Sequence record: MW822007.1
Origin: Escherichia phage BF15
Strand: one strand, 5' to 3'
DNA: 64,000 nucleotides
The notes beneath the pieces are model-generated. The model saw only the letters and a list, made by a program, of their open reading frames with translations. It was not told the origin of the DNA and ran no database searches. The position numbers and the translations under genes are program-made. Below, piece after piece: positions 48,884-57,922 of this stretch (position 1 is the stretch's first letter; every line of letters starts with the position of its first letter).

Positions 48884-48913
48884 ACTATAACACAACACGA
48901 GGGACTTGTAAAC
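48884..48913 (-). promoter_or_regulatory. T4 early-type promoter (GTTTAC-N18-TATAGT) for 96-aa ORF
   Basis: Minus strand GTTTAC (48908..48913), 18-nt spacer, TATAGT (48884..48889). Confidence 0.5.
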
Positions 48914-50970
48914 TACATCTTGAACTTTTTAGACATTCCATTGATGTTAACCAAAGAAGCCAAGATTTGAGAAACTTCGTTTTCCTCTTCTTTTGATTCT
49001 TCTACAAGGAATTGATTAAACCCAGCCATTGGACGAACTTCACCAGTTTCCATTAGATGGTCGCCATCATATACCGATTCTTCTAATTGTTCAGAAGGAG
49101 GAACGATTGTGCCTTCGATTAGATACTTGTTATAAGCAGTTTCTTTCATCATGTACGTACTCACTTTATTAATCTTCAGCAAAATTCCACGTGGTAAAAT
49201 AACTTCAGCTTCTGATGGAAATCCTGATAAATGTCCTGGAACGATAACTTTGATTCGCTCAGCTCCTTTAATTACCATACCCACGCTAGTTTCAGCATCT
49301 TCATTGGCATACGCAGAATGACTACCCATATGCATTAAATCTTCAGCGTCAACAGAACCTTCTCCTTCACCAGAAAATACTGCACCGGAATCATCTAGAG
49401 CCATATAGTTTTTACCATACTCACCGAAGATATTTGGTTTAAGCGATGTGGATACGAAGTTCTTGAAGTAGAACATTTTATTTTCAATATTATGACGTAA
49501 AGTTTTAAAGGTAACTTCTTGTCCACGGTAAAGTGTAGTTCCTGGAGGAAGAACTGATCCTTTGGCAAAGGCAGAATCCATTGTCTCGATGTGTTTAATA
49601 GCTCGTTCCATATATTCTTCACGGGTAGAATCCGGTTTACCTAAAAGGAATGAGTTCATTTCAACATATGAATCTGCACAATAATCTTCAATTACATCAG
49701 ACTCAGCCTGAGTTAATCCTTTTGGAGTTACTTCAGTACTTGCATATTCATACGCTTGAGAAGCAGACTCATTAATCAATTTATAAACGCCATTCATGAC
49801 AAATTGAACAATAGCTACCTTTTCATCTGGTGTGGCTTTAGAACCTTTAACTAAATCATTGACAATTTTCTTAATAACATCAAAGCTATTAGAAATATTA
49901 ATGTCAGCAAGATCACTTAAAATTTTATCAGTTTTATAATCAAAAAATTCTTTATTCTTTAAATATTCTTGAGAACCTTGATATGATATATCGCTCTGTA
50001 ACTTGATAGATGGATCACGTAAACGCGCATGAGCCAATGCAATATGATTTCGGAAGCTTTCTAATTCATAATCACTAGATTTAAAACGGGAAGCACTCCT
50101 CATACCACCGATAGCTCCTTTGCTGAAGTTTGAACCAACCTGAATAACGCCAGAGTTCATTGGTCCTTCTGCTTTATATACCGGAACTTTAGATTCAAAC
50201 TCTTGATATTTCTTAGCAGCGAAGCTATCACCCTGAAGTGAAGCATCGACAGTAGAGTATTGAGCTTGTGCTGCTAATCGACGACTAATTTTAGTTTTCT
50301 GAATAACAGCTTGATCCGTGCGCTTATCATTTTCTAAAGCAATAGAAGCAGCAACAGCGACAGCTTTAGGAACAGCATTACCTGTTTTAACGTCTACATA
50401 AACATCACCAACCTTTGATTCAACTTTTGTGAATAACTCAGTTGAAATAGGAGGTACACCTGGAATGTCTTCTAAATTAGCATTTTTACGGTAAACCATA
50501 ATATATGCGTACTTTTTATCGTAATCCCAGATTTCCTTTAAAAGAACATATCGACCTGCTCCTTTAGTACGTACTAAACGGTCGGCAATAACTTGCATTT
50601 GACGAGCTGCACCATTTGTTTTACTCTTTAGTACGCGGAATAAGCATGCGTCAATTTTATACTGTTTCATTGTTTGAAGAGCAGTATCAAAAACGGCATT
50701 AATGACGCCAATTGGATTTCCACCTAAGTTTTTAAGTTTAACTAATGATAGTTTCTCATTAACACCTATCATTACGATATGCATCATTTTATCGCCTGGC
50801 TTAACGTTTTTATTTGTATCACCGCCAGAGGTGTATGTACAAAATCTAAATCCAGGAAGCACACTTTCTTCGCCTGCTTGAATAGCAAAAATTTGAGGTA
50901 TTTTATGCTTAGGATTTAAGTTAACAACCGGCGCCGAAGCGCCGTCAAATAATTCTGTAATAAGTTCCAT
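48913..50970 (-). CDS. Alt-like ADP-ribosyltransferase, paralog A
   Basis: 685 aa (T4 Alt 682 from memory); ART-like R/STS/E motifs (LYRGQ, VSTSL, SEAEVILPRG); N-terminal 240 aa strongly similar to the adjacent paralog. Confidence 0.85.
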   Translation of the reverse strand: MELITELFDGASAPVVNLNPKHKIPQIFAIQAGEESVLPGFRFCTYTSGGDTNKNVKPGDKMMHIVMIGVNEKLSLVKLKNLGGNPIGVINAVFDTALQTMKQYKIDACLFRVLKSKTNGAARQMQVIADRLVRTKGAGRYVLLKEIWDYDKKYAYIMVYRKNANLEDIPGVPPISTELFTKVESKVGDVYVDVKTGNAVPKAVAVAASIALENDKRTDQAVIQKTKISRRLAAQAQYSTVDASLQGDSFAAKKYQEFESKVPVYKAEGPMNSGVIQVGSNFSKGAIGGMRSASRFKSSDYELESFRNHIALAHARLRDPSIKLQSDISYQGSQEYLKNKEFFDYKTDKILSDLADINISNSFDVIKKIVNDLVKGSKATPDEKVAIVQFVMNGVYKLINESASQAYEYASTEVTPKGLTQAESDVIEDYCADSYVEMNSFLLGKPDSTREEYMERAIKHIETMDSAFAKGSVLPPGTTLYRGQEVTFKTLRHNIENKMFYFKNFVSTSLKPNIFGEYGKNYMALDDSGAVFSGEGEGSVDAEDLMHMGSHSAYANEDAETSVGMVIKGAERIKVIVPGHLSGFPSEAEVILPRGILLKINKVSTYMMKETAYNKYLIEGTIVPPSEQLEESVYDGDHLMETGEVRPMAGFNQFLVEESKEEENEVSQILASLVNINGMSKKFKM

Positions 50971-50973
50971 GAT

Positions 50974-53070
50974 TTATCCTTGAACGAACTTGTAAGGCAT
51001 GTTTGCAATATCTATGCAAGATGCAATAATTCCAAGAGATGATTCTACTTTTTGTTTAACATTTGATGAAACAAATGATGCAAAGTCAACTCTGTCTTCT
51101 ATTTCAATATCACCTGTCATTGCAACTACTTCGCCGGTTTCCATTAGACGGTCACCGTCATAAATTACTGATTCGGTGAGTTCTTCCGTAGTCATAACTT
51201 CAGCTTGAATGAGTTTTGTATTATTAGATGTTGTTCCGTCATTATTAGAAGCATCAGTTATTTTATTAACTTTGACCATCAATCCGCGTGGTAGAATAAC
51301 TTCAGCTTCTGTTGCTATTCCGAGACTTCCTGGATATACAACATTAACTTTATGAGCTCCATCAATTGCCCATCCTATTTGAACTTTAACGTATTCAGGA
51401 TTTTCTTTATACGCTCTTATTTCGTTTGGATTAATAGTTATTCCTTCTTCATTTTTATCAACTGTCAATTCATTACGAGCTTCTGGTTCTAAAAGACCAA
51501 TACCAGCATGTGTAATTCCAAAACGTCCAAAAATGATAGGAGTTAAAGAAGTAGATACAAAATTTCTGAAATAGAACACTTTATTTTTAACTAGTGCTTC
51601 GTATATAGGAGCAGTCATGCTTTGAGCACGATAAACTGTAATGCCTTCTGGTATACGGTCACCATTTTCAAAAGCTGAATCTAAATTATTTATCGCAGAT
51701 TCAATTTCTTTTTCACTCATTACATCATATCGTTCTGGATTGTAGCGGCCTAAAAGAAGATTATTGATGTCAGTATATCCTGATCCACAATACTCTCTAA
51801 TGCCGCGCTTTTGCGATGGAGTATATTTAGAACCATCACGGGCAATAGTAATATCAATCATTGGACCTGCACCAATTCCAGAAAAGCTATAAATCATTCG
51901 TTTGAGGAATTTAGTTTTTGCTGCGTTCCAGGAATTTTTAGTTATTTCTTCCCAGACTTCATCTGGCTGCCCTTTACGAGTTTTATTATGTTTATCAAGC
52001 CAATTATCTTTATATTCTTCAAAGAATTTATTAACAGCTGCTGCGTATTTCTCTAAACATTTTATTGAAGTAGTTGGTTCATTTTTGATCGCGTTAAAAA
52101 TTACATCTTTAATTTTTTCAGAAACTTCATCAACCTCACTTTTTGGAAAGAATTTATAGTCATAGTGAAGTTCATCTGCGGTTCCTTCGGCAATGATTTT
52201 TGCTGCCTTAGTTTTAGAAGCTAATGAATTAATTCCAAGCTTCATTTCTTCTGCTTCGGGAATTAAAGGAGCAGTAGCAGGTTTATTGAAATTAGCTGCA
52301 GTAGATTCATACTTCTGGAATAATTCGCTTTCAAATCTAGAAGATTCTAATGATTGACTTTGCGCAATTGCTCTACGGGAAATTTTAACTTTAACAATAA
52401 CAGCTTGGTCAGAACGTTTATCGTTTTCTTGCGCAATAGATGCTGCAATTGCCTCATTTTTAGTTACTTGAGCTCCAGTATCTTTATTGATATAAACATC
52501 GCCGACTTTCGATTCAACTTTAGTAAAGAGCTCGGTACTAATTTCTGGAACTCCTGGAATGTCTTCTAATGATACATTTTTGCGATGTATAAGAATATAT
52601 GCATACTTTTTATCGTAATCCCAGAGTTCCTTAAGAAGGACGTATCTGCCACCTGAACGACTACGGATAAGTCTATCAGCAATAACTTGAATTTGTCGAG
52701 CTTGACCAGCAGTTTTAGACTTAAGAATACGAAGCATGCAGGCATCAATTTTATACTGACGCATCGTTTGCATCGCAACAGTAAAAACTGAATTGATATA
52801 ATTAATTGGGCTTGGACCGAGACCTTTTAATTTAGCAATTGAACCTTTAGCAGTTAATGTAAAAGGAACAATATGCATCATTTTATCGCCCATTTTTAAA
52901 TCACGGTTAGTATCACCTCCAGATGTATAGGTACATAAACGAAAGCCTGGTTGTTCAATTGCGTCATCGACATGAACTGAAAAAATTTGTGGTATTTTCT
53001 TCTTTGGATTTAAGTTTGTAATCGGAAGAGTAGTATCTTCGTCAAATAATTCTGTAATAAGTTCCATCAT
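50974..53070 (-). CDS. Alt-like ADP-ribosyltransferase, paralog B
   Basis: 698 aa; ART-like motifs VYRAQ, VSTSL, TEAEVILPRG; N-terminus MELITELFD... near-identical to paralog A; TATAAATA 21 nt upstream. Confidence 0.85.
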   Translation of the reverse strand: MMELITELFDEDTTLPITNLNPKKKIPQIFSVHVDDAIEQPGFRLCTYTSGGDTNRDLKMGDKMMHIVPFTLTAKGSIAKLKGLGPSPINYINSVFTVAMQTMRQYKIDACMLRILKSKTAGQARQIQVIADRLIRSRSGGRYVLLKELWDYDKKYAYILIHRKNVSLEDIPGVPEISTELFTKVESKVGDVYINKDTGAQVTKNEAIAASIAQENDKRSDQAVIVKVKISRRAIAQSQSLESSRFESELFQKYESTAANFNKPATAPLIPEAEEMKLGINSLASKTKAAKIIAEGTADELHYDYKFFPKSEVDEVSEKIKDVIFNAIKNEPTTSIKCLEKYAAAVNKFFEEYKDNWLDKHNKTRKGQPDEVWEEITKNSWNAAKTKFLKRMIYSFSGIGAGPMIDITIARDGSKYTPSQKRGIREYCGSGYTDINNLLLGRYNPERYDVMSEKEIESAINNLDSAFENGDRIPEGITVYRAQSMTAPIYEALVKNKVFYFRNFVSTSLTPIIFGRFGITHAGIGLLEPEARNELTVDKNEEGITINPNEIRAYKENPEYVKVQIGWAIDGAHKVNVVYPGSLGIATEAEVILPRGLMVKVNKITDASNNDGTTSNNTKLIQAEVMTTEELTESVIYDGDRLMETGEVVAMTGDIEIEDRVDFASFVSSNVKQKVESSLGIIASCIDIANMPYKFVQG

Positions 53071-53103: not shown

Positions 53104-53121
53104 AAAGGCCCGAAGGCCTTT
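53104..53121 (-). terminator. terminator after ligase / 62-aa ORF (minus strand)
   Basis: AAAGGCC-TTCG-GGCCTTT hairpin on minus strand followed by AATTTTAT; next element is a late promoter. Confidence 0.6.
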
Positions 53122-53308
53122 AATAATCTAGTGGTAAGAGAGTACGATATATTTCAAACTTTGGCCCTTTTTCATAGGCATCAAATGTTTCTGTAAATTT
53201 ATTATAAGCATATGCATCTACAAATTCGAGAACGATTTGTGATACAGAAGTAGAAACATCTCCACCTTCTTTTTGAGCCACGACAATTGTTTCTAAGTAA
53301 GCTTTCAT
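53120..53308 (-). CDS. hypothetical small protein
   Basis: 62 aa ORF whose start overlaps the ligase stop (ATGA coupling); ends in terminator hairpin. Confidence 0.5.
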   Translation of the reverse strand: MKAYLETIVVAQKEGGDVSTSVSQIVLEFVDAYAYNKFTETFDAYEKGPKFEIYRTLLPLDY

Positions 53309-54765
53309 AAACCAGTTACCTCATGAAAATCACCAAATACATCCTCAAATGTATTAGCTTTAGTTTTATCTTCACGTAAACGAATCGCAATCGGAAGAAA
53401 TAATTTAACGTAATCAGTGCGGCCATCAGATTTTAACCAACCATTGCATTCGCACTCTAGAATTTTTCCAATATAATAATTTTGGTTTTCCATAATGCGA
53501 GTACGGTCAAGTTCATGTGATTTTACGCCAGCTTTATCTTTTAAGCCTGAACCTGCATTTACTTTAATTTTTCCACACTCTGATTCAAGAATAAATCCAC
53601 CCGCTTTAGTAGGGTCTTTACGGTGAGGATAAATTCCTACAATTTTTAAATCAACATCAATTACTTCTTTAAATTTATAAAGATTTTTTGAACGAGCATT
53701 TTCCCACAATCCATCGATATTTTTGAGAATAATACCTTCAAGACCTTGGTCAATATACTTTTTATAAATTACCTTAGCTTCATCTAGGTTATTTACTACC
53801 TGGTTTTCAATTAAAATTACTTTATCATATCCTGATGTCATTTGTTCTAGTTTAGAAAAACGTACATCATATTTTAAACGAAACGCCGGAAGACCGTATA
53901 TTTCTACCAACGGAACATAATCCCAGACCTGAAACTTCATGCATTTGGCTTCTTTTTCTGAAATAGTTCCCTTTAAAGATTTATTGGCGATTCCATTAGA
54001 AGCAGTACGAGATTCAGCTACTTCGGCAAACTCTTTAGCTTTACTATTTTCAGGAGCATCAAAAAGAAAATCTAGGCCTTCTGGTTCCTTTTCAACTTGC
54101 TCATGGTATACCAATTCGCCATCGATTAACACGCCTTCTGGATGAATCTGGCGGGCTTCAGCAGTCATTTTGATTAACTCTTCCTTAAGAAGATCTAATC
54201 CTAGGTATTCATTGCCAGCTCGTGATAAAAGACGAACATCATCTAATTCATCACCTCTGACTTCAGCAAAACACCGAGCTCCATCTGCTTTTAACTGCGC
54301 AAAAGCTGGAAACTTGATATTCTTACTAATGCCTTTTTCATCATAAGAACTTGCCAGCATTTGAGGTTGTTCAGGAATTAAACCTGGCCAAACTTTGTTT
54401 GCAATAGATACTGAAGCACCGCATTCAAGGTCTCGCATCATAACTCGACGCAAAACTTCAACATCATCCTTTTTACCATCGGTGATATATCCAGTTAATT
54501 CCTCAATTGCTGCATTGCCAGTTAATTTCCGAGTAGCTAACGTAAATTCAATAAAGTCAAGCATATCGGTAATAGTCAGCATTCCAAAACTCTGGGTAGC
54601 AATACCAGGTTTAGGCCATTTCTTGATATAATACTGTAACCCACGAGAATAAGTCAGACGATATACTCGTTTAAGCAATTCATTATTTTTATTCTTTTCA
54701 AGAATTGCTTGCTTCTGTTTAGTTGATCCAATAGATGCTATTTCATTCAGAATTTTAAGAATCAT
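53305..54765 (-). CDS. 30: ATP-dependent DNA ligase
   Basis: 486 aa; adenylation motif KADGAR; N-terminus MILKILNEIAS... as T4 gp30. Confidence 0.95.
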   Translation of the reverse strand: MILKILNEIASIGSTKQKQAILEKNKNNELLKRVYRLTYSRGLQYYIKKWPKPGIATQSFGMLTITDMLDFIEFTLATRKLTGNAAIEELTGYITDGKKDDVEVLRRVMMRDLECGASVSIANKVWPGLIPEQPQMLASSYDEKGISKNIKFPAFAQLKADGARCFAEVRGDELDDVRLLSRAGNEYLGLDLLKEELIKMTAEARQIHPEGVLIDGELVYHEQVEKEPEGLDFLFDAPENSKAKEFAEVAESRTASNGIANKSLKGTISEKEAKCMKFQVWDYVPLVEIYGLPAFRLKYDVRFSKLEQMTSGYDKVILIENQVVNNLDEAKVIYKKYIDQGLEGIILKNIDGLWENARSKNLYKFKEVIDVDLKIVGIYPHRKDPTKAGGFILESECGKIKVNAGSGLKDKAGVKSHELDRTRIMENQNYYIGKILECECNGWLKSDGRTDYVKLFLPIAIRLREDKTKANTFEDVFGDFHEVTGL

Positions 54766-55031
54766 TGTTCATCCTTCAGAGTTTGATTTACATCTCTATT
54801 ATAAATCAATTCATCATTAAGCTCAGGCAAAGACTTATGATATGTCGTTCTAACTTTATTTCCTTGCATCCAGTGCTTGACGTAAATGAAACCTTGCTCT
54901 ACACATTTTTTAAAAATTCGTTCGTCTTTTTGAGCACGGAATTCTGGATTGCATCTAAAAAATTGATTTACGTGACCGTAATCACGTGTAGTATTACCTT
55001 CATTTTCATAAATAGTATGAACAACAAACAT
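54762..55031 (-). CDS. hypothetical protein (30.1 position)
   Basis: 89 aa ORF, start/stop overlaps with both neighbours on the minus strand. Confidence 0.6.
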   Translation of the reverse strand: MFVVHTIYENEGNTTRDYGHVNQFFRCNPEFRAQKDERIFKKCVEQGFIYVKHWMQGNKVRTTYHKSLPELNDELIYNRDVNQTLKDEQ

Positions 55032-55870
55032 TAGAATGCTCCTTGAAAAATATTATCACCACTAGTAGGTCTATTATACAAATACTCTATGCCACCAGGT
55101 TTAATATAGTTCCATGTCTGAAACGGATGTGTCTGATATGGATGATATAGATGATTATAAGGATTAAATCCAGGCGTTCTCCAGGTAGTGTTCCAAGGAA
55201 AAGAATCGTTTTTAACCATCTTCTCAATTAAATCTTTTATAGCTTTTTCACTATCAAAACTTTCTTTATTTTCCTTCGGCGAAAAAAGCTTATTTTCTAC
55301 ATCATTCCATGTATAAACTCGCTGCGCAGTTTTTGGAATATTATCACGCTCCCCTCGAGCCATCCAATAAACAGGAACATTTAATATTTCACTCGCATGA
55401 TCGCAGTGATGAGCGAGATCGTCAATATAACAAATTACGTTATATTTCTCTTTTGCCTTTTTGAACAGCTCTTCTTTTGAAGAATCATGACCACACATCA
55501 TTACTTCCGAGAAAGCACCAGGAAAAAGAGCATTCAAATTAAATTGACGATTCAATAAAGCGTCAATAGAATCACCCAATGCTGTAACAGCAACAAAATT
55601 ATAATCTTCTTTTAATTTGTTAATTACACACAGGGCATCTTTATACGGAGACAAGTAACGAATAAAATCTGAACGATTGTATTTTTCAATTAACTTGACG
55701 CCAAGTTCTTCGTCACAATTAAAGAGTTTACCTGGAGAAATAAATTTCTCATCTTGGATCATTTTTAAAATATGTTCTAACGGAAGATTATATTTCTGAG
55801 CAAAATAAGGAAGGCCTGATTGCCAGCTTAAACATACTCCATCAATATCAGTCAAAATAGTTGGTTTCAT
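55031..55870 (-). CDS. HAD-superfamily-like hydrolase (30.2 position)
   Basis: 279 aa; N-terminal LTDIDGV resembles HAD motif I (DxDG[TV]). Confidence 0.6.
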   Translation of the reverse strand: MKPTILTDIDGVCLSWQSGLPYFAQKYNLPLEHILKMIQDEKFISPGKLFNCDEELGVKLIEKYNRSDFIRYLSPYKDALCVINKLKEDYNFVAVTALGDSIDALLNRQFNLNALFPGAFSEVMMCGHDSSKEELFKKAKEKYNVICYIDDLAHHCDHASEILNVPVYWMARGERDNIPKTAQRVYTWNDVENKLFSPKENKESFDSEKAIKDLIEKMVKNDSFPWNTTWRTPGFNPYNHLYHPYQTHPFQTWNYIKPGGIEYLYNRPTSGDNIFQGAF

Positions 55871-56331
55871 AGAGAGTCTCTTAATAGGTTTAACACATCA
55901 ATAAATTCAGCTTCGGTTAGTATTGTATCATCTTTTGTTAGACCACTAGCCATGCTGTGCTTCAAAACTTTTCCTTTCGAGGCTTGTAATGCATCACGAA
56001 AACCCCTGTTTTGGATCGCTGCTTCAAAATATGCATTTGTGTATAATTCTTTCCATGCTTCGGAATATCTTGAAAACGGAGTTCCAAGCCAGAACAACGT
56101 GCCACGGTCCTGAGCTCTTGCATAAGCTCGTCCAGCTTTTTGCGCGTCCAACCCGGACATCCCAAATATACGTCTTTGCTGTTCAACATTTTTCACCTTA
56201 CATCCTTGGAGGAATCCTTCTAGACCTCCAAATTGAATACCATCCATAACGAAAGGCCATTGGGCGAAATTGCTTAATGCACATGATGGCCATTTAAAAT
56301 TGCTTCTAATCTCTAACTCAGACATTTTCAA
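55867..56331 (-). CDS. NADAR / YbiA-like (DUF1768) protein (30.3 position)
   Basis: 154 aa; segment LSNFAQWPFVMDG resembles the YbiA/NADAR N-terminal signature. Confidence 0.6.
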   Translation of the reverse strand: MKMSELEIRSNFKWPSCALSNFAQWPFVMDGIQFGGLEGFLQGCKVKNVEQQRRIFGMSGLDAQKAGRAYARAQDRGTLFWLGTPFSRYSEAWKELYTNAYFEAAIQNRGFRDALQASKGKVLKHSMASGLTKDDTILTEAEFIDVLNLLRDSL

Positions 56332-57884: not shown

Positions 57885-57918
57885 TTGGAAAATAAAAAAG
57901 GACTCCCGAAGGAGTCCT
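57885..57918 (-). terminator. rho-independent terminator after basic 72-aa ORF (minus strand)
   Basis: AGGACTCC-TTCG-GGAGTCCT hairpin followed by TTTTTTATTTT on the minus strand. Confidence 0.8.
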
Positions 57919-57922
57919 CAAC

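Follow-up and report, generated by a model that had tools for sequence, protein, structure and literature searches.

Genes 30.3 and 30.2 of Escherichia phage BF15: the NADAR protein AdfN and a predicted HAD phosphatase upstream of DNA ligase

Gene order upstream of the DNA ligase gene

The window, i.e. the entire stretch of 64,000 nucleotides from Escherichia phage BF15 (MW822007.1) which was analysed, is a Tequatrovirus (T4-like) genome. In a phage record search 681 records, nearly all from Tequatrovirus and relatives, matched the segment 54700-56600, which shares 98% identity with Escherichia phage vB_EcoM_JE01. The minus strand carries every gene in the examined part of the window, and the gene order corresponds one-for-one to the T4 map: alt, alt.1, 30, 30.1, 30.2, 30.3 (with the internal 30.3'), 30.4-30.9, rIII and 31 (Table 1). 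A previous sequence-only reading of this DNA had listed two open reading frames here, a YbiA/NADAR-like one of 154 aa and a HAD-like one of 279 aa. Both are real minus-strand genes, 30.3 and 30.2, yet the product of the former has 152 residues. The 154-aa frame is due to a mechanical TTG start at 56331, which lies inside gene 30.4 two codons before the real ATG. The gene in fact begins with the ATG at 56325, overlapping the stop codon of 30.4 (ATGTCTGA): from there it has the same length as in T4 (459 nt), its product aligns with T4 gp30.3 from end to end, and the published residue numbers E36 and K43 are recovered. Of 50,697 phage records, 1510 contained relatives of 30.3 and 1439 contained relatives of 30.2. 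With more than 1400 records each, the two genes are not chance open reading frames.

Table 1. Genes and features of the 30.3/30.2 region, listed by position in the window.
Feature	Position	Strand	Assignment
Alt-type ADP-ribosyltransferase gene, 685 aa	48913-50970	-	PF03496, E 2.4e-20; 42% identical to T4 Alt
Alt-type ADP-ribosyltransferase gene, 698 aa	50974-53070	-	PF03496, E 1e-37; 70% identical to T4 Alt
Gene 30, ATP-dependent DNA ligase	53305-54765	-	PF01068, E 4e-32
Gene 30.1 (DUF3045, 89 aa), between 30.2 and ligase	54762-55031	-	PF11243, E 4.7e-62; T4 30.1 counterpart
Gene 30.2, 279 aa	55031-55870	-	HAD-fold
Gene 30.2, residues 196-279 and stop codon	55031-55285	-	C-terminal tail
Gene 30.2, G-I-E-Y-L-Y-N-R-P-T	55093-55064	-	Short conserved motif near the end
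Gene 30.2, residues 1-195	55286-55870	-	HAD core and helical C1-type cap (residues ~16-86)
Gene 30.2, D8/D10	55849-55841	-	HAD motif I
Gene 30.3 (adfN), 152-aa NADAR-fold protein	55867-56325	-	Predicted DNA ADP-ribosylglycohydrolase
Gene 30.3, E36 codon	56220-56218	-	Key residue
Gene 30.3, K43 codon	56199-56197	-	Key residue
Gene 30.3, H123 codon	55959-55957	-	Key residue

The pair had been described as lying immediately upstream of DNA ligase and near two ADP-ribosyltransferases. The first point is nearly correct, except that the small gene 30.1 intervenes. The second holds: the two PF03496 genes are tandem full-length paralogs with a mutual identity of 41%; they are part of the context and stand outside the NADAR/HAD pair. 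Alt ADP-ribosylates arginine. Successive genes overlap by 8 nt (30.4/30.3), 4 nt (30.3/30.2), 1 nt (30.2/30.1) and 4 nt (30.1/30), and the minus strand showed no terminator-like hairpin from 57898 to the ligase gene. Overlaps and absent terminator are consistent with a single transcription unit from 30.4 to 30, which they may suggest but do not prove. A scan for sigma-70 promoters returned 22 sites compared to 27 expected by chance and, because of this deficit, was left out of the definition of the transcription unit.

The gene 30.3 product and T4 AdfN

The 30.3 product of the window is 94% identical to T4 gp30.3 in a gapless alignment of all 152 residues, and none of the nine substitutions affects an invariant column. 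It belongs to the Pfam family PF08010 (Phage_30_3), which it matched over the full model length with 227.9 bits (cutoff 36; E 4.2e-68); models of NCBIfam and PADLOC were not matched. The NADAR alpha+beta fold is present. The SNFAQWP...DG signature, from which the YbiA/NADAR likeness had been proposed, was located at residues 18-29. When a profile of ten family members was run against the PDB (hmmsearch), YbiA was the best match, with an E-value of 0.039 over the segment SNFA-WP...DG...E-F/Y-Q..K. Alignment of the family profile with E. coli YbiA (hhalign) gave a probability of 86% and an E-value of 4.9e-6 over 98 columns, and a phmmer search of the PDB sequences with the single sequence yielded noise only. 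Because the sequence signal to YbiA is modest, the NADAR assignment leans mainly on the fold. The matches to PF08010 and to the YbiA profile do not point to an unrelated fold, one of two findings which the earlier reading had named as contradicting its proposal.

The other was a lack of the NADAR catalytic residues. E36 and K43, the Glu and Lys with which T4 AdfN contacts the distal ribose, are present together with H123, and all three are invariant in ten family sequences down to 39% identity. H123 is located on strand 120-123, the last strand of the model, in the context L-(K/R/Y)-H-(S/T). NADARs keep the Glu by which this ribose is coordinated, and on the last strand the phage proteins have a His as their second catalytic acid (Schuller et al., 2023, PMC11543638; PMC11125620). 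At this position the YbiA family has Glu and the DarG1 type Asp (PMC11543638, PMC11125620). The C-terminal helix of gp30.3 is complete in the model (residues 138-151). Since the protein is full length and this helix is intact, gp30.3 of the window is predicted to be active.

The role of T4 gp30.3 and its activity against DarT have already been published, and the NADAR part of the locus is known in detail. Resistance of T-even phages to DarTG1 was mapped to gene 30.3, which was then renamed adfN (Johannesman et al., Nat Commun 2025, PMC11825919). Purified T4 AdfN strips ADP-ribose from DarT1-modified DNA in vitro, the E36A protein is inactive, and deletion of adfN renders T4 sensitive to DarTG1 (PMC11825919). 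In an independent in vitro study T4 gp30.3 acted on guanine-ADP-ribose, not on thymine-ADP-ribose (PMC11125620). On DarTG1 hosts, phages with a transposon insertion in adfN drop out (bioRxiv 10.1101/2025.11.20.689424). The adfN allele of RB69 is truncated by a frameshift, has lost the C-terminal helix and has reduced activity; plaquing of RB69 on DarTG1 was only partially rescued by the E36A or K43A variants or by an RB69-like truncation (PMC11825919). Expressed in uninfected E. coli, T4 AdfN gives no rescue from DarT1, and it is fully effective only during T-even infection (PMC11825919, PMC11125620).

The window allele shares with T4 gp30.3/AdfN (PF08010) the genomic position, E36, K43, H123 and the intact C-terminal helix, and differs at nine residues. 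Fold, catalytic residues and orthology identify gp30.3 as AdfN, and no sequence evidence was found to contradict this; activity and phenotype of this particular copy are presumably those of the 94% identical T4 protein. The suggestion of the sequence-only reading that the protein could counter DarT-type DNA ADP-ribosylation is borne out experimentally for that T4 protein (PMC11825919, PMC11125620, bioRxiv 10.1101/2025.11.20.689424). Its other suggestion, a general NAD/ADP-ribose metabolism linked to Alt, found no support in our data or in the cited AdfN papers. By analogy to T4, the DarT1 toxin of a DarTG1 host would ADP-ribosylate guanines in the phage DNA, and replication would be blocked. 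AdfN would then hydrolyse the N-glycosidic bond that joins ADP-ribose to guanine, which would restore the base, release ADP-ribose and allow replication to proceed.

Other NADARs are considerably more distant. E. coli YbiA (2b3w), to which an N-glycosidase activity on riboflavin intermediates is assigned, and the NADAR from Phytophthora (8bau) share 19-21% identity with gp30.3 and have the last-strand Glu of the YbiA family where gp30.3 has His. DarG1 and the DarT1-associated NADARs (Geobacter lovleyi, 8bat; E. coli C7) are 14% identical and have Asp instead of this His. gp30.3 probably acts like DarG1; however, it is an orphan, flanked by 30.4 and 30.2 with no adjacent DarT1 gene and with no PADLOC match, and in uninfected cells the T4 enzyme is no substitute for DarG1. 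We also considered gp30.3 as the DarG1 antitoxin of a DarTG1 system. This was rejected because the DarT partner is absent.

The gene 30.2 product, a HAD-fold hydrolase

gp30.2 is 97% identical to T4 gp30.2. A first search for its family yielded 100 cluster representatives, and at E ≤0.001 the profile matched 1427 out of 1.8 billion representatives. The Rossmannoid HAD core fold is present in gp30.2, and AF2 modelled residues 1-195 confidently. Directly after motif I the model has a helical insertion, a C1-type cap. The sequence LTDIDGV, in which HAD motif I had been recognised from the letters alone, comprises residues 6-12, and the 279-aa protein contains all four HAD motifs: D8/D10 (I), T96 (II), K132 (III) and D150-D151 (IV). 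In an alignment of 37 relatives D8, D10 and K132 were invariant, and T96, D150 and D151 were conserved to at least 90%. In 40 sequences of the wider family, down to 23% identity, D8, D10, R108, K132 and D151 were invariant. We conclude that gp30.2 is a HAD-fold hydrolase. This is an ordinary fold call which some GenBank records already carry, under the labels 'putative phosphatase' or '5' nucleotidase'. Our literature searches on gp30.2 returned no relevant paper.

In HAD proteins an Asp two residues after the nucleophile marks the phosphatase/mutase type. D10 occupies this position in gp30.2, which is thus not of the dehalogenase or ATPase type. The phospho-aspartyl intermediate would be formed on D8, with D10 as the general acid/base; phosphoryl binding would fall to T96 and K132, and metal binding to D150/D151.

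The placement of gp30.2 within the HAD proteins is based on PDB matches and puts it closest, among characterised proteins, to the 5'(3')-deoxyribonucleotidases. The best PDB profile match was the mouse cytosolic 5'(3')-deoxyribonucleotidase (2jao; E 0.018). DIDGVCLSWQSGL of gp30.2 aligns with NMDGVLADFESGL of 2jao, and W16 falls on the position of a Phe. In the deoxyribonucleotidases this Phe, eight residues after the nucleophilic Asp (Phe18 in cdN, Phe49 in mdN), stacks on the base. W16 is conserved to at least 90% in both alignments, i.e. of 37 and of 40 sequences. With the NT5C proteins (cdN, 2jao and 2i7d; mdN, 4mum; S. epidermidis, 3bwv) gp30.2 has in common the HAD core with a helical C1 cap, motif I as DxDGV, an aromatic residue at Asp+8 followed by S-G-L, and motif IV as DD. 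Yet it is only 17-21% identical and below the Pfam threshold, has an additional disordered tail of 85 residues with a conserved motif of its own, and constitutes a separate clade which is specific for T4-like phages and linked to ligase. NT5C was the Pfam family matched by most members of the wider gp30.2 family (10 of 40; best E 1.1e-8), and a relative with 34% identity to gp30.2 reached 22.4 bits against a gathering score of 24.8. gp30.2 of the window itself matched no model of Pfam, NCBIfam or PADLOC, and a single-sequence phmmer search against PDB sequences gave noise only. In PHROGs it is a member of an unannotated family with a weak match to polynucleotide kinase. Curated NT5C (PF06941) membership was rejected because of the sub-threshold scores. 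Judged by its motifs and its relatives, gp30.2 is predicted to be a Mg2+-dependent phosphatase which is near to, but outside of, curated NT5C. Judging from the closing helical cap and W16, the substrate would be small and nucleotide-like, and most probably a (deoxy)nucleoside monophosphate as it is for the 5'(3')-deoxyribonucleotidases. T4 recycles host dNMPs, which a general dNMP phosphatase would counteract.

Apart from one helix (207-220), residues 196-279 of gp30.2 were modelled with low confidence, and pLDDT was 41-54 over residues 221-279. Aromatic residues, Pro and Asn are abundant in this tail. Its length varies among relatives, and some have no tail at all. Close to its end is the short conserved motif listed in Table 1, which as G-[IVL]-E-Y-[LWY]-x-x-[QR]-P-T occurs in 16 of the 100 cluster representatives, from different genera, while the flanking tail cannot be aligned. 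It looks like a docking motif and may be one. A six-frame translation of the window contained no second copy, so no binding partner is suggested. In the longer relatives of gp30.2 (P0173, P0231, P0124, P0163 and others) no extra Pfam domain was recognisable.

Genomic neighbourhood and alternative functions

The neighbouring genes were searched in 77 IMG/VR loci around relatives of gp30.2. In 71 loci a DNA ligase gene followed downstream on the strand of the HAD gene, at most 1.7 kb away. A NADAR gene was upstream on the same strand within 1.3 kb in 36 loci, in 19 of the 77 within 100 nt, and 41 loci had no NADAR gene within 6 kb. These counts are descriptive only, given the strong synteny of T4-like genomes and the phylogenetic dependence among the loci. 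The comparison of 71 with 36 loci indicates that the stable association is that of HAD with ligase, not of HAD with NADAR. Open reading frames between the HAD and ligase genes of Aeromonas phage AS-zj and of a metagenomic contig are not NADARs (hhalign probability <1%). Klebsiella phage Metamorpho has its NADAR gene among tRNA genes at a distance of 60 kb, and the HAD gene is still next to ligase and Alt. Acinetobacter phages belonging to the subfamily Twarogvirinae retain the NADAR-HAD-ligase order with a NADAR that is only about 45% identical. We regard 30.3 and 30.2 as adjacent members of a conserved early block (NADAR, HAD, ligase, Alt); they are no demonstrated two-component system. In our view it is highly probable that the two frames are the Tequatrovirus early genes 30.3, i.e. 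adfN, and 30.2, encoding a HAD phosphatase with a presumed nucleotide-like substrate, and that they are neighbours within this block.

Possibly gp30.2 is an end-healing 3'-phosphatase, which readies nicks or breaks for the DNA ligase encoded next to it. The 3'-phosphatase of T4 polynucleotide kinase (1ltq, 5uj0), which acts on polynucleotide ends, has no large cap, whereas that of gp30.2 comprises about 70 residues. We regard this function as unlikely and maintain the nucleotide-like substrate.

An alternative for gp30.3 is that it mainly acts elsewhere, on soluble ADP-ribose-derived immune signals, on riboflavin intermediates as YbiA does, or in undoing the ADP-ribosylation by Alt/Mod. A comparative genomics study suggested that phage NADARs preferentially target soluble derivatives of ADP-ribose, and it pointed to their co-expression with ADP-ribosyltransferases in T4-like phages (PMC9503650). 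Two Alt genes are nearby in the window, in some genera the NADAR gene is among tRNA genes, and YbiA is a structural neighbour of gp30.3. Against this, the experiments with the T4 ortholog resulted in de-ADP-ribosylation of DNA guanine and a phenotype specific for DarTG1 (PMC11825919, PMC11125620, bioRxiv 10.1101/2025.11.20.689424). Further, phage NADARs have His where the YbiA family has its last-strand Glu (PMC11543638), and a NADAR activity on arginine-ADP-ribose is not reported in the cited NADAR papers. Another main target is quite improbable, and gp30.3 as an AdfN acting on DNA is preferred.

Finally, gp30.2 might be a partner of AdfN, either as the missing T-even factor or as an enzyme which disposes of a phosphorylated product such as ribose-5-phosphate, AMP or phospho-ADP-ribose. 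The authors of the AdfN study considered that an additional T-even protein may be needed (PMC11825919). The 4-nt overlap of 30.3 and 30.2 (ATGA) suggests translational coupling, the 36 loci (of 77) with a same-strand NADAR gene upstream of HAD include Acinetobacter phages of another subfamily, and the relatives of both genes, in about 1450-1500 phage records each, have nearly the same distribution and the same spread of hosts. The adjacency carries little weight because of the strong synteny of T4-like genomes. The 41 of 77 loci with no NADAR within 6 kb and the remote NADAR gene of Metamorpho argue against a partnership, as does a genome-wide transposon screen of T4 on DarTG1, which names adfN alone as conditionally essential (bioRxiv 10.1101/2025.11.20.689424). 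Chemically, no phosphatase step is required after AdfN because NADARs release ADP-ribose and leave an intact base (PMC11543638). A partnership of this kind is therefore very unlikely. One can take the idea further and envision the NADAR-HAD-ligase-Alt block, conserved across subfamilies of T4-like phages, as a DNA-damage-reversal module. In such a module the HAD protein would be recruited via its C-terminal motif G-I-E-Y-L-x-x-R/Q-P-T and would either supply the missing T-even activity for AdfN or process a phosphorylated lesion or product prior to ligation. We consider this a long shot.

gp30.2 stands for a predicted HAD phosphatase in more than 1400 genomes of T4-like phages, beside ligase almost everywhere. 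In the window it adjoins the gene of a protein which reportedly needs an extra T-even factor; this is a testable lead, even if the link is weak. The gp30.3 allele is of use for annotation and the prediction of host range only: as a full-length protein with intact catalytic residues it predicts that the phage would be resistant to DarTG1 hosts.

An overlapping frame within adfN

The gene for the NADAR-fold DNA ADP-ribosylglycohydrolase, adfN (gene 30.3), harbors in another frame an intact ORF. Its T4 counterpart, 30.3', is annotated in T4 as an internal translation product. Both proteins are read from shared DNA, yet the 30.3' ORF is only 71% identical to T4 whereas gp30.3 is 94% identical. This difference suggests that substitutions were taken up by the overlapping frame; from the sequence comparison they seem to have been absorbed there rather than in gp30.3. 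Selection at the protein level may even be absent on the 30.3' frame.

Features of the window and of the Metamorpho region L003 (MT701588.1 99754-108188)
Feature	Coordinates	Strand	Remarks
Two tandem full-length Alt-type ADP-ribosyltransferase genes	48913-53070	minus	698 and 685 aa
alt.1	53120-53308	minus	'Phage blade protein' PF24647, E 1e-29
Motif G-I-E-Y-L-Y-N-R-P-T	55064-55093	minus	gp30.2 residues 260-269
ORF within adfN	55962-56189	minus	75 aa; T4 30.3'; Pfam DUF2883 (E 6e-35)
Promoter-like site	57868-57840	minus	past the hairpin, before 30.8
Strong terminator-like hairpin	57898-57919	minus	9-bp stem, GAGGACTCC-TTCG-GGAGTCCTT, then T run
NADAR (gp30.3) homolog, Klebsiella phage Metamorpho (Jiaodavirus)	L003 4001-4444		

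Gene surroundings

The hairpin lies directly past gene 30.9 and, together with the promoter-like site, is likely to mark the upstream boundary of the gene block from 30.8 to 30. T4 possesses a single alt gene and remnants of a duplicate, alt.-1 and alt.-2, whereas the window carries two full-length copies. The encoded proteins share 41% identity and both retain the R, S-T-S and E-x-E motifs. Compared with T4 Alt, the upstream copy shows near identity in the first 245 residues and at the C-terminus, with a divergent middle portion; overall identity is 70%. The small gene alt.1, flanked by alt and the ligase gene, matches a recent Pfam family.

In Metamorpho the NADAR gene has surroundings unlike those in Tequatrovirus. 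It is located within a tRNA gene cluster, 60 kb away from the conserved block of 30.2 homolog, ligase gene and Alt gene. This placement amid tRNA genes brings to mind the suggestion that NADAR domains are connected with RNA repair.

The C-terminal tail of gp30.2

The tail of the HAD phosphatase gp30.2 is disordered and non-conserved except for the motif at its end. Among 100 cluster representatives of the gp30.2 family, 16, drawn from several genera, carry the pattern G-[IVL]-EY-[LWY]-x-x-[QR]-PT, which may constitute a docking motif.
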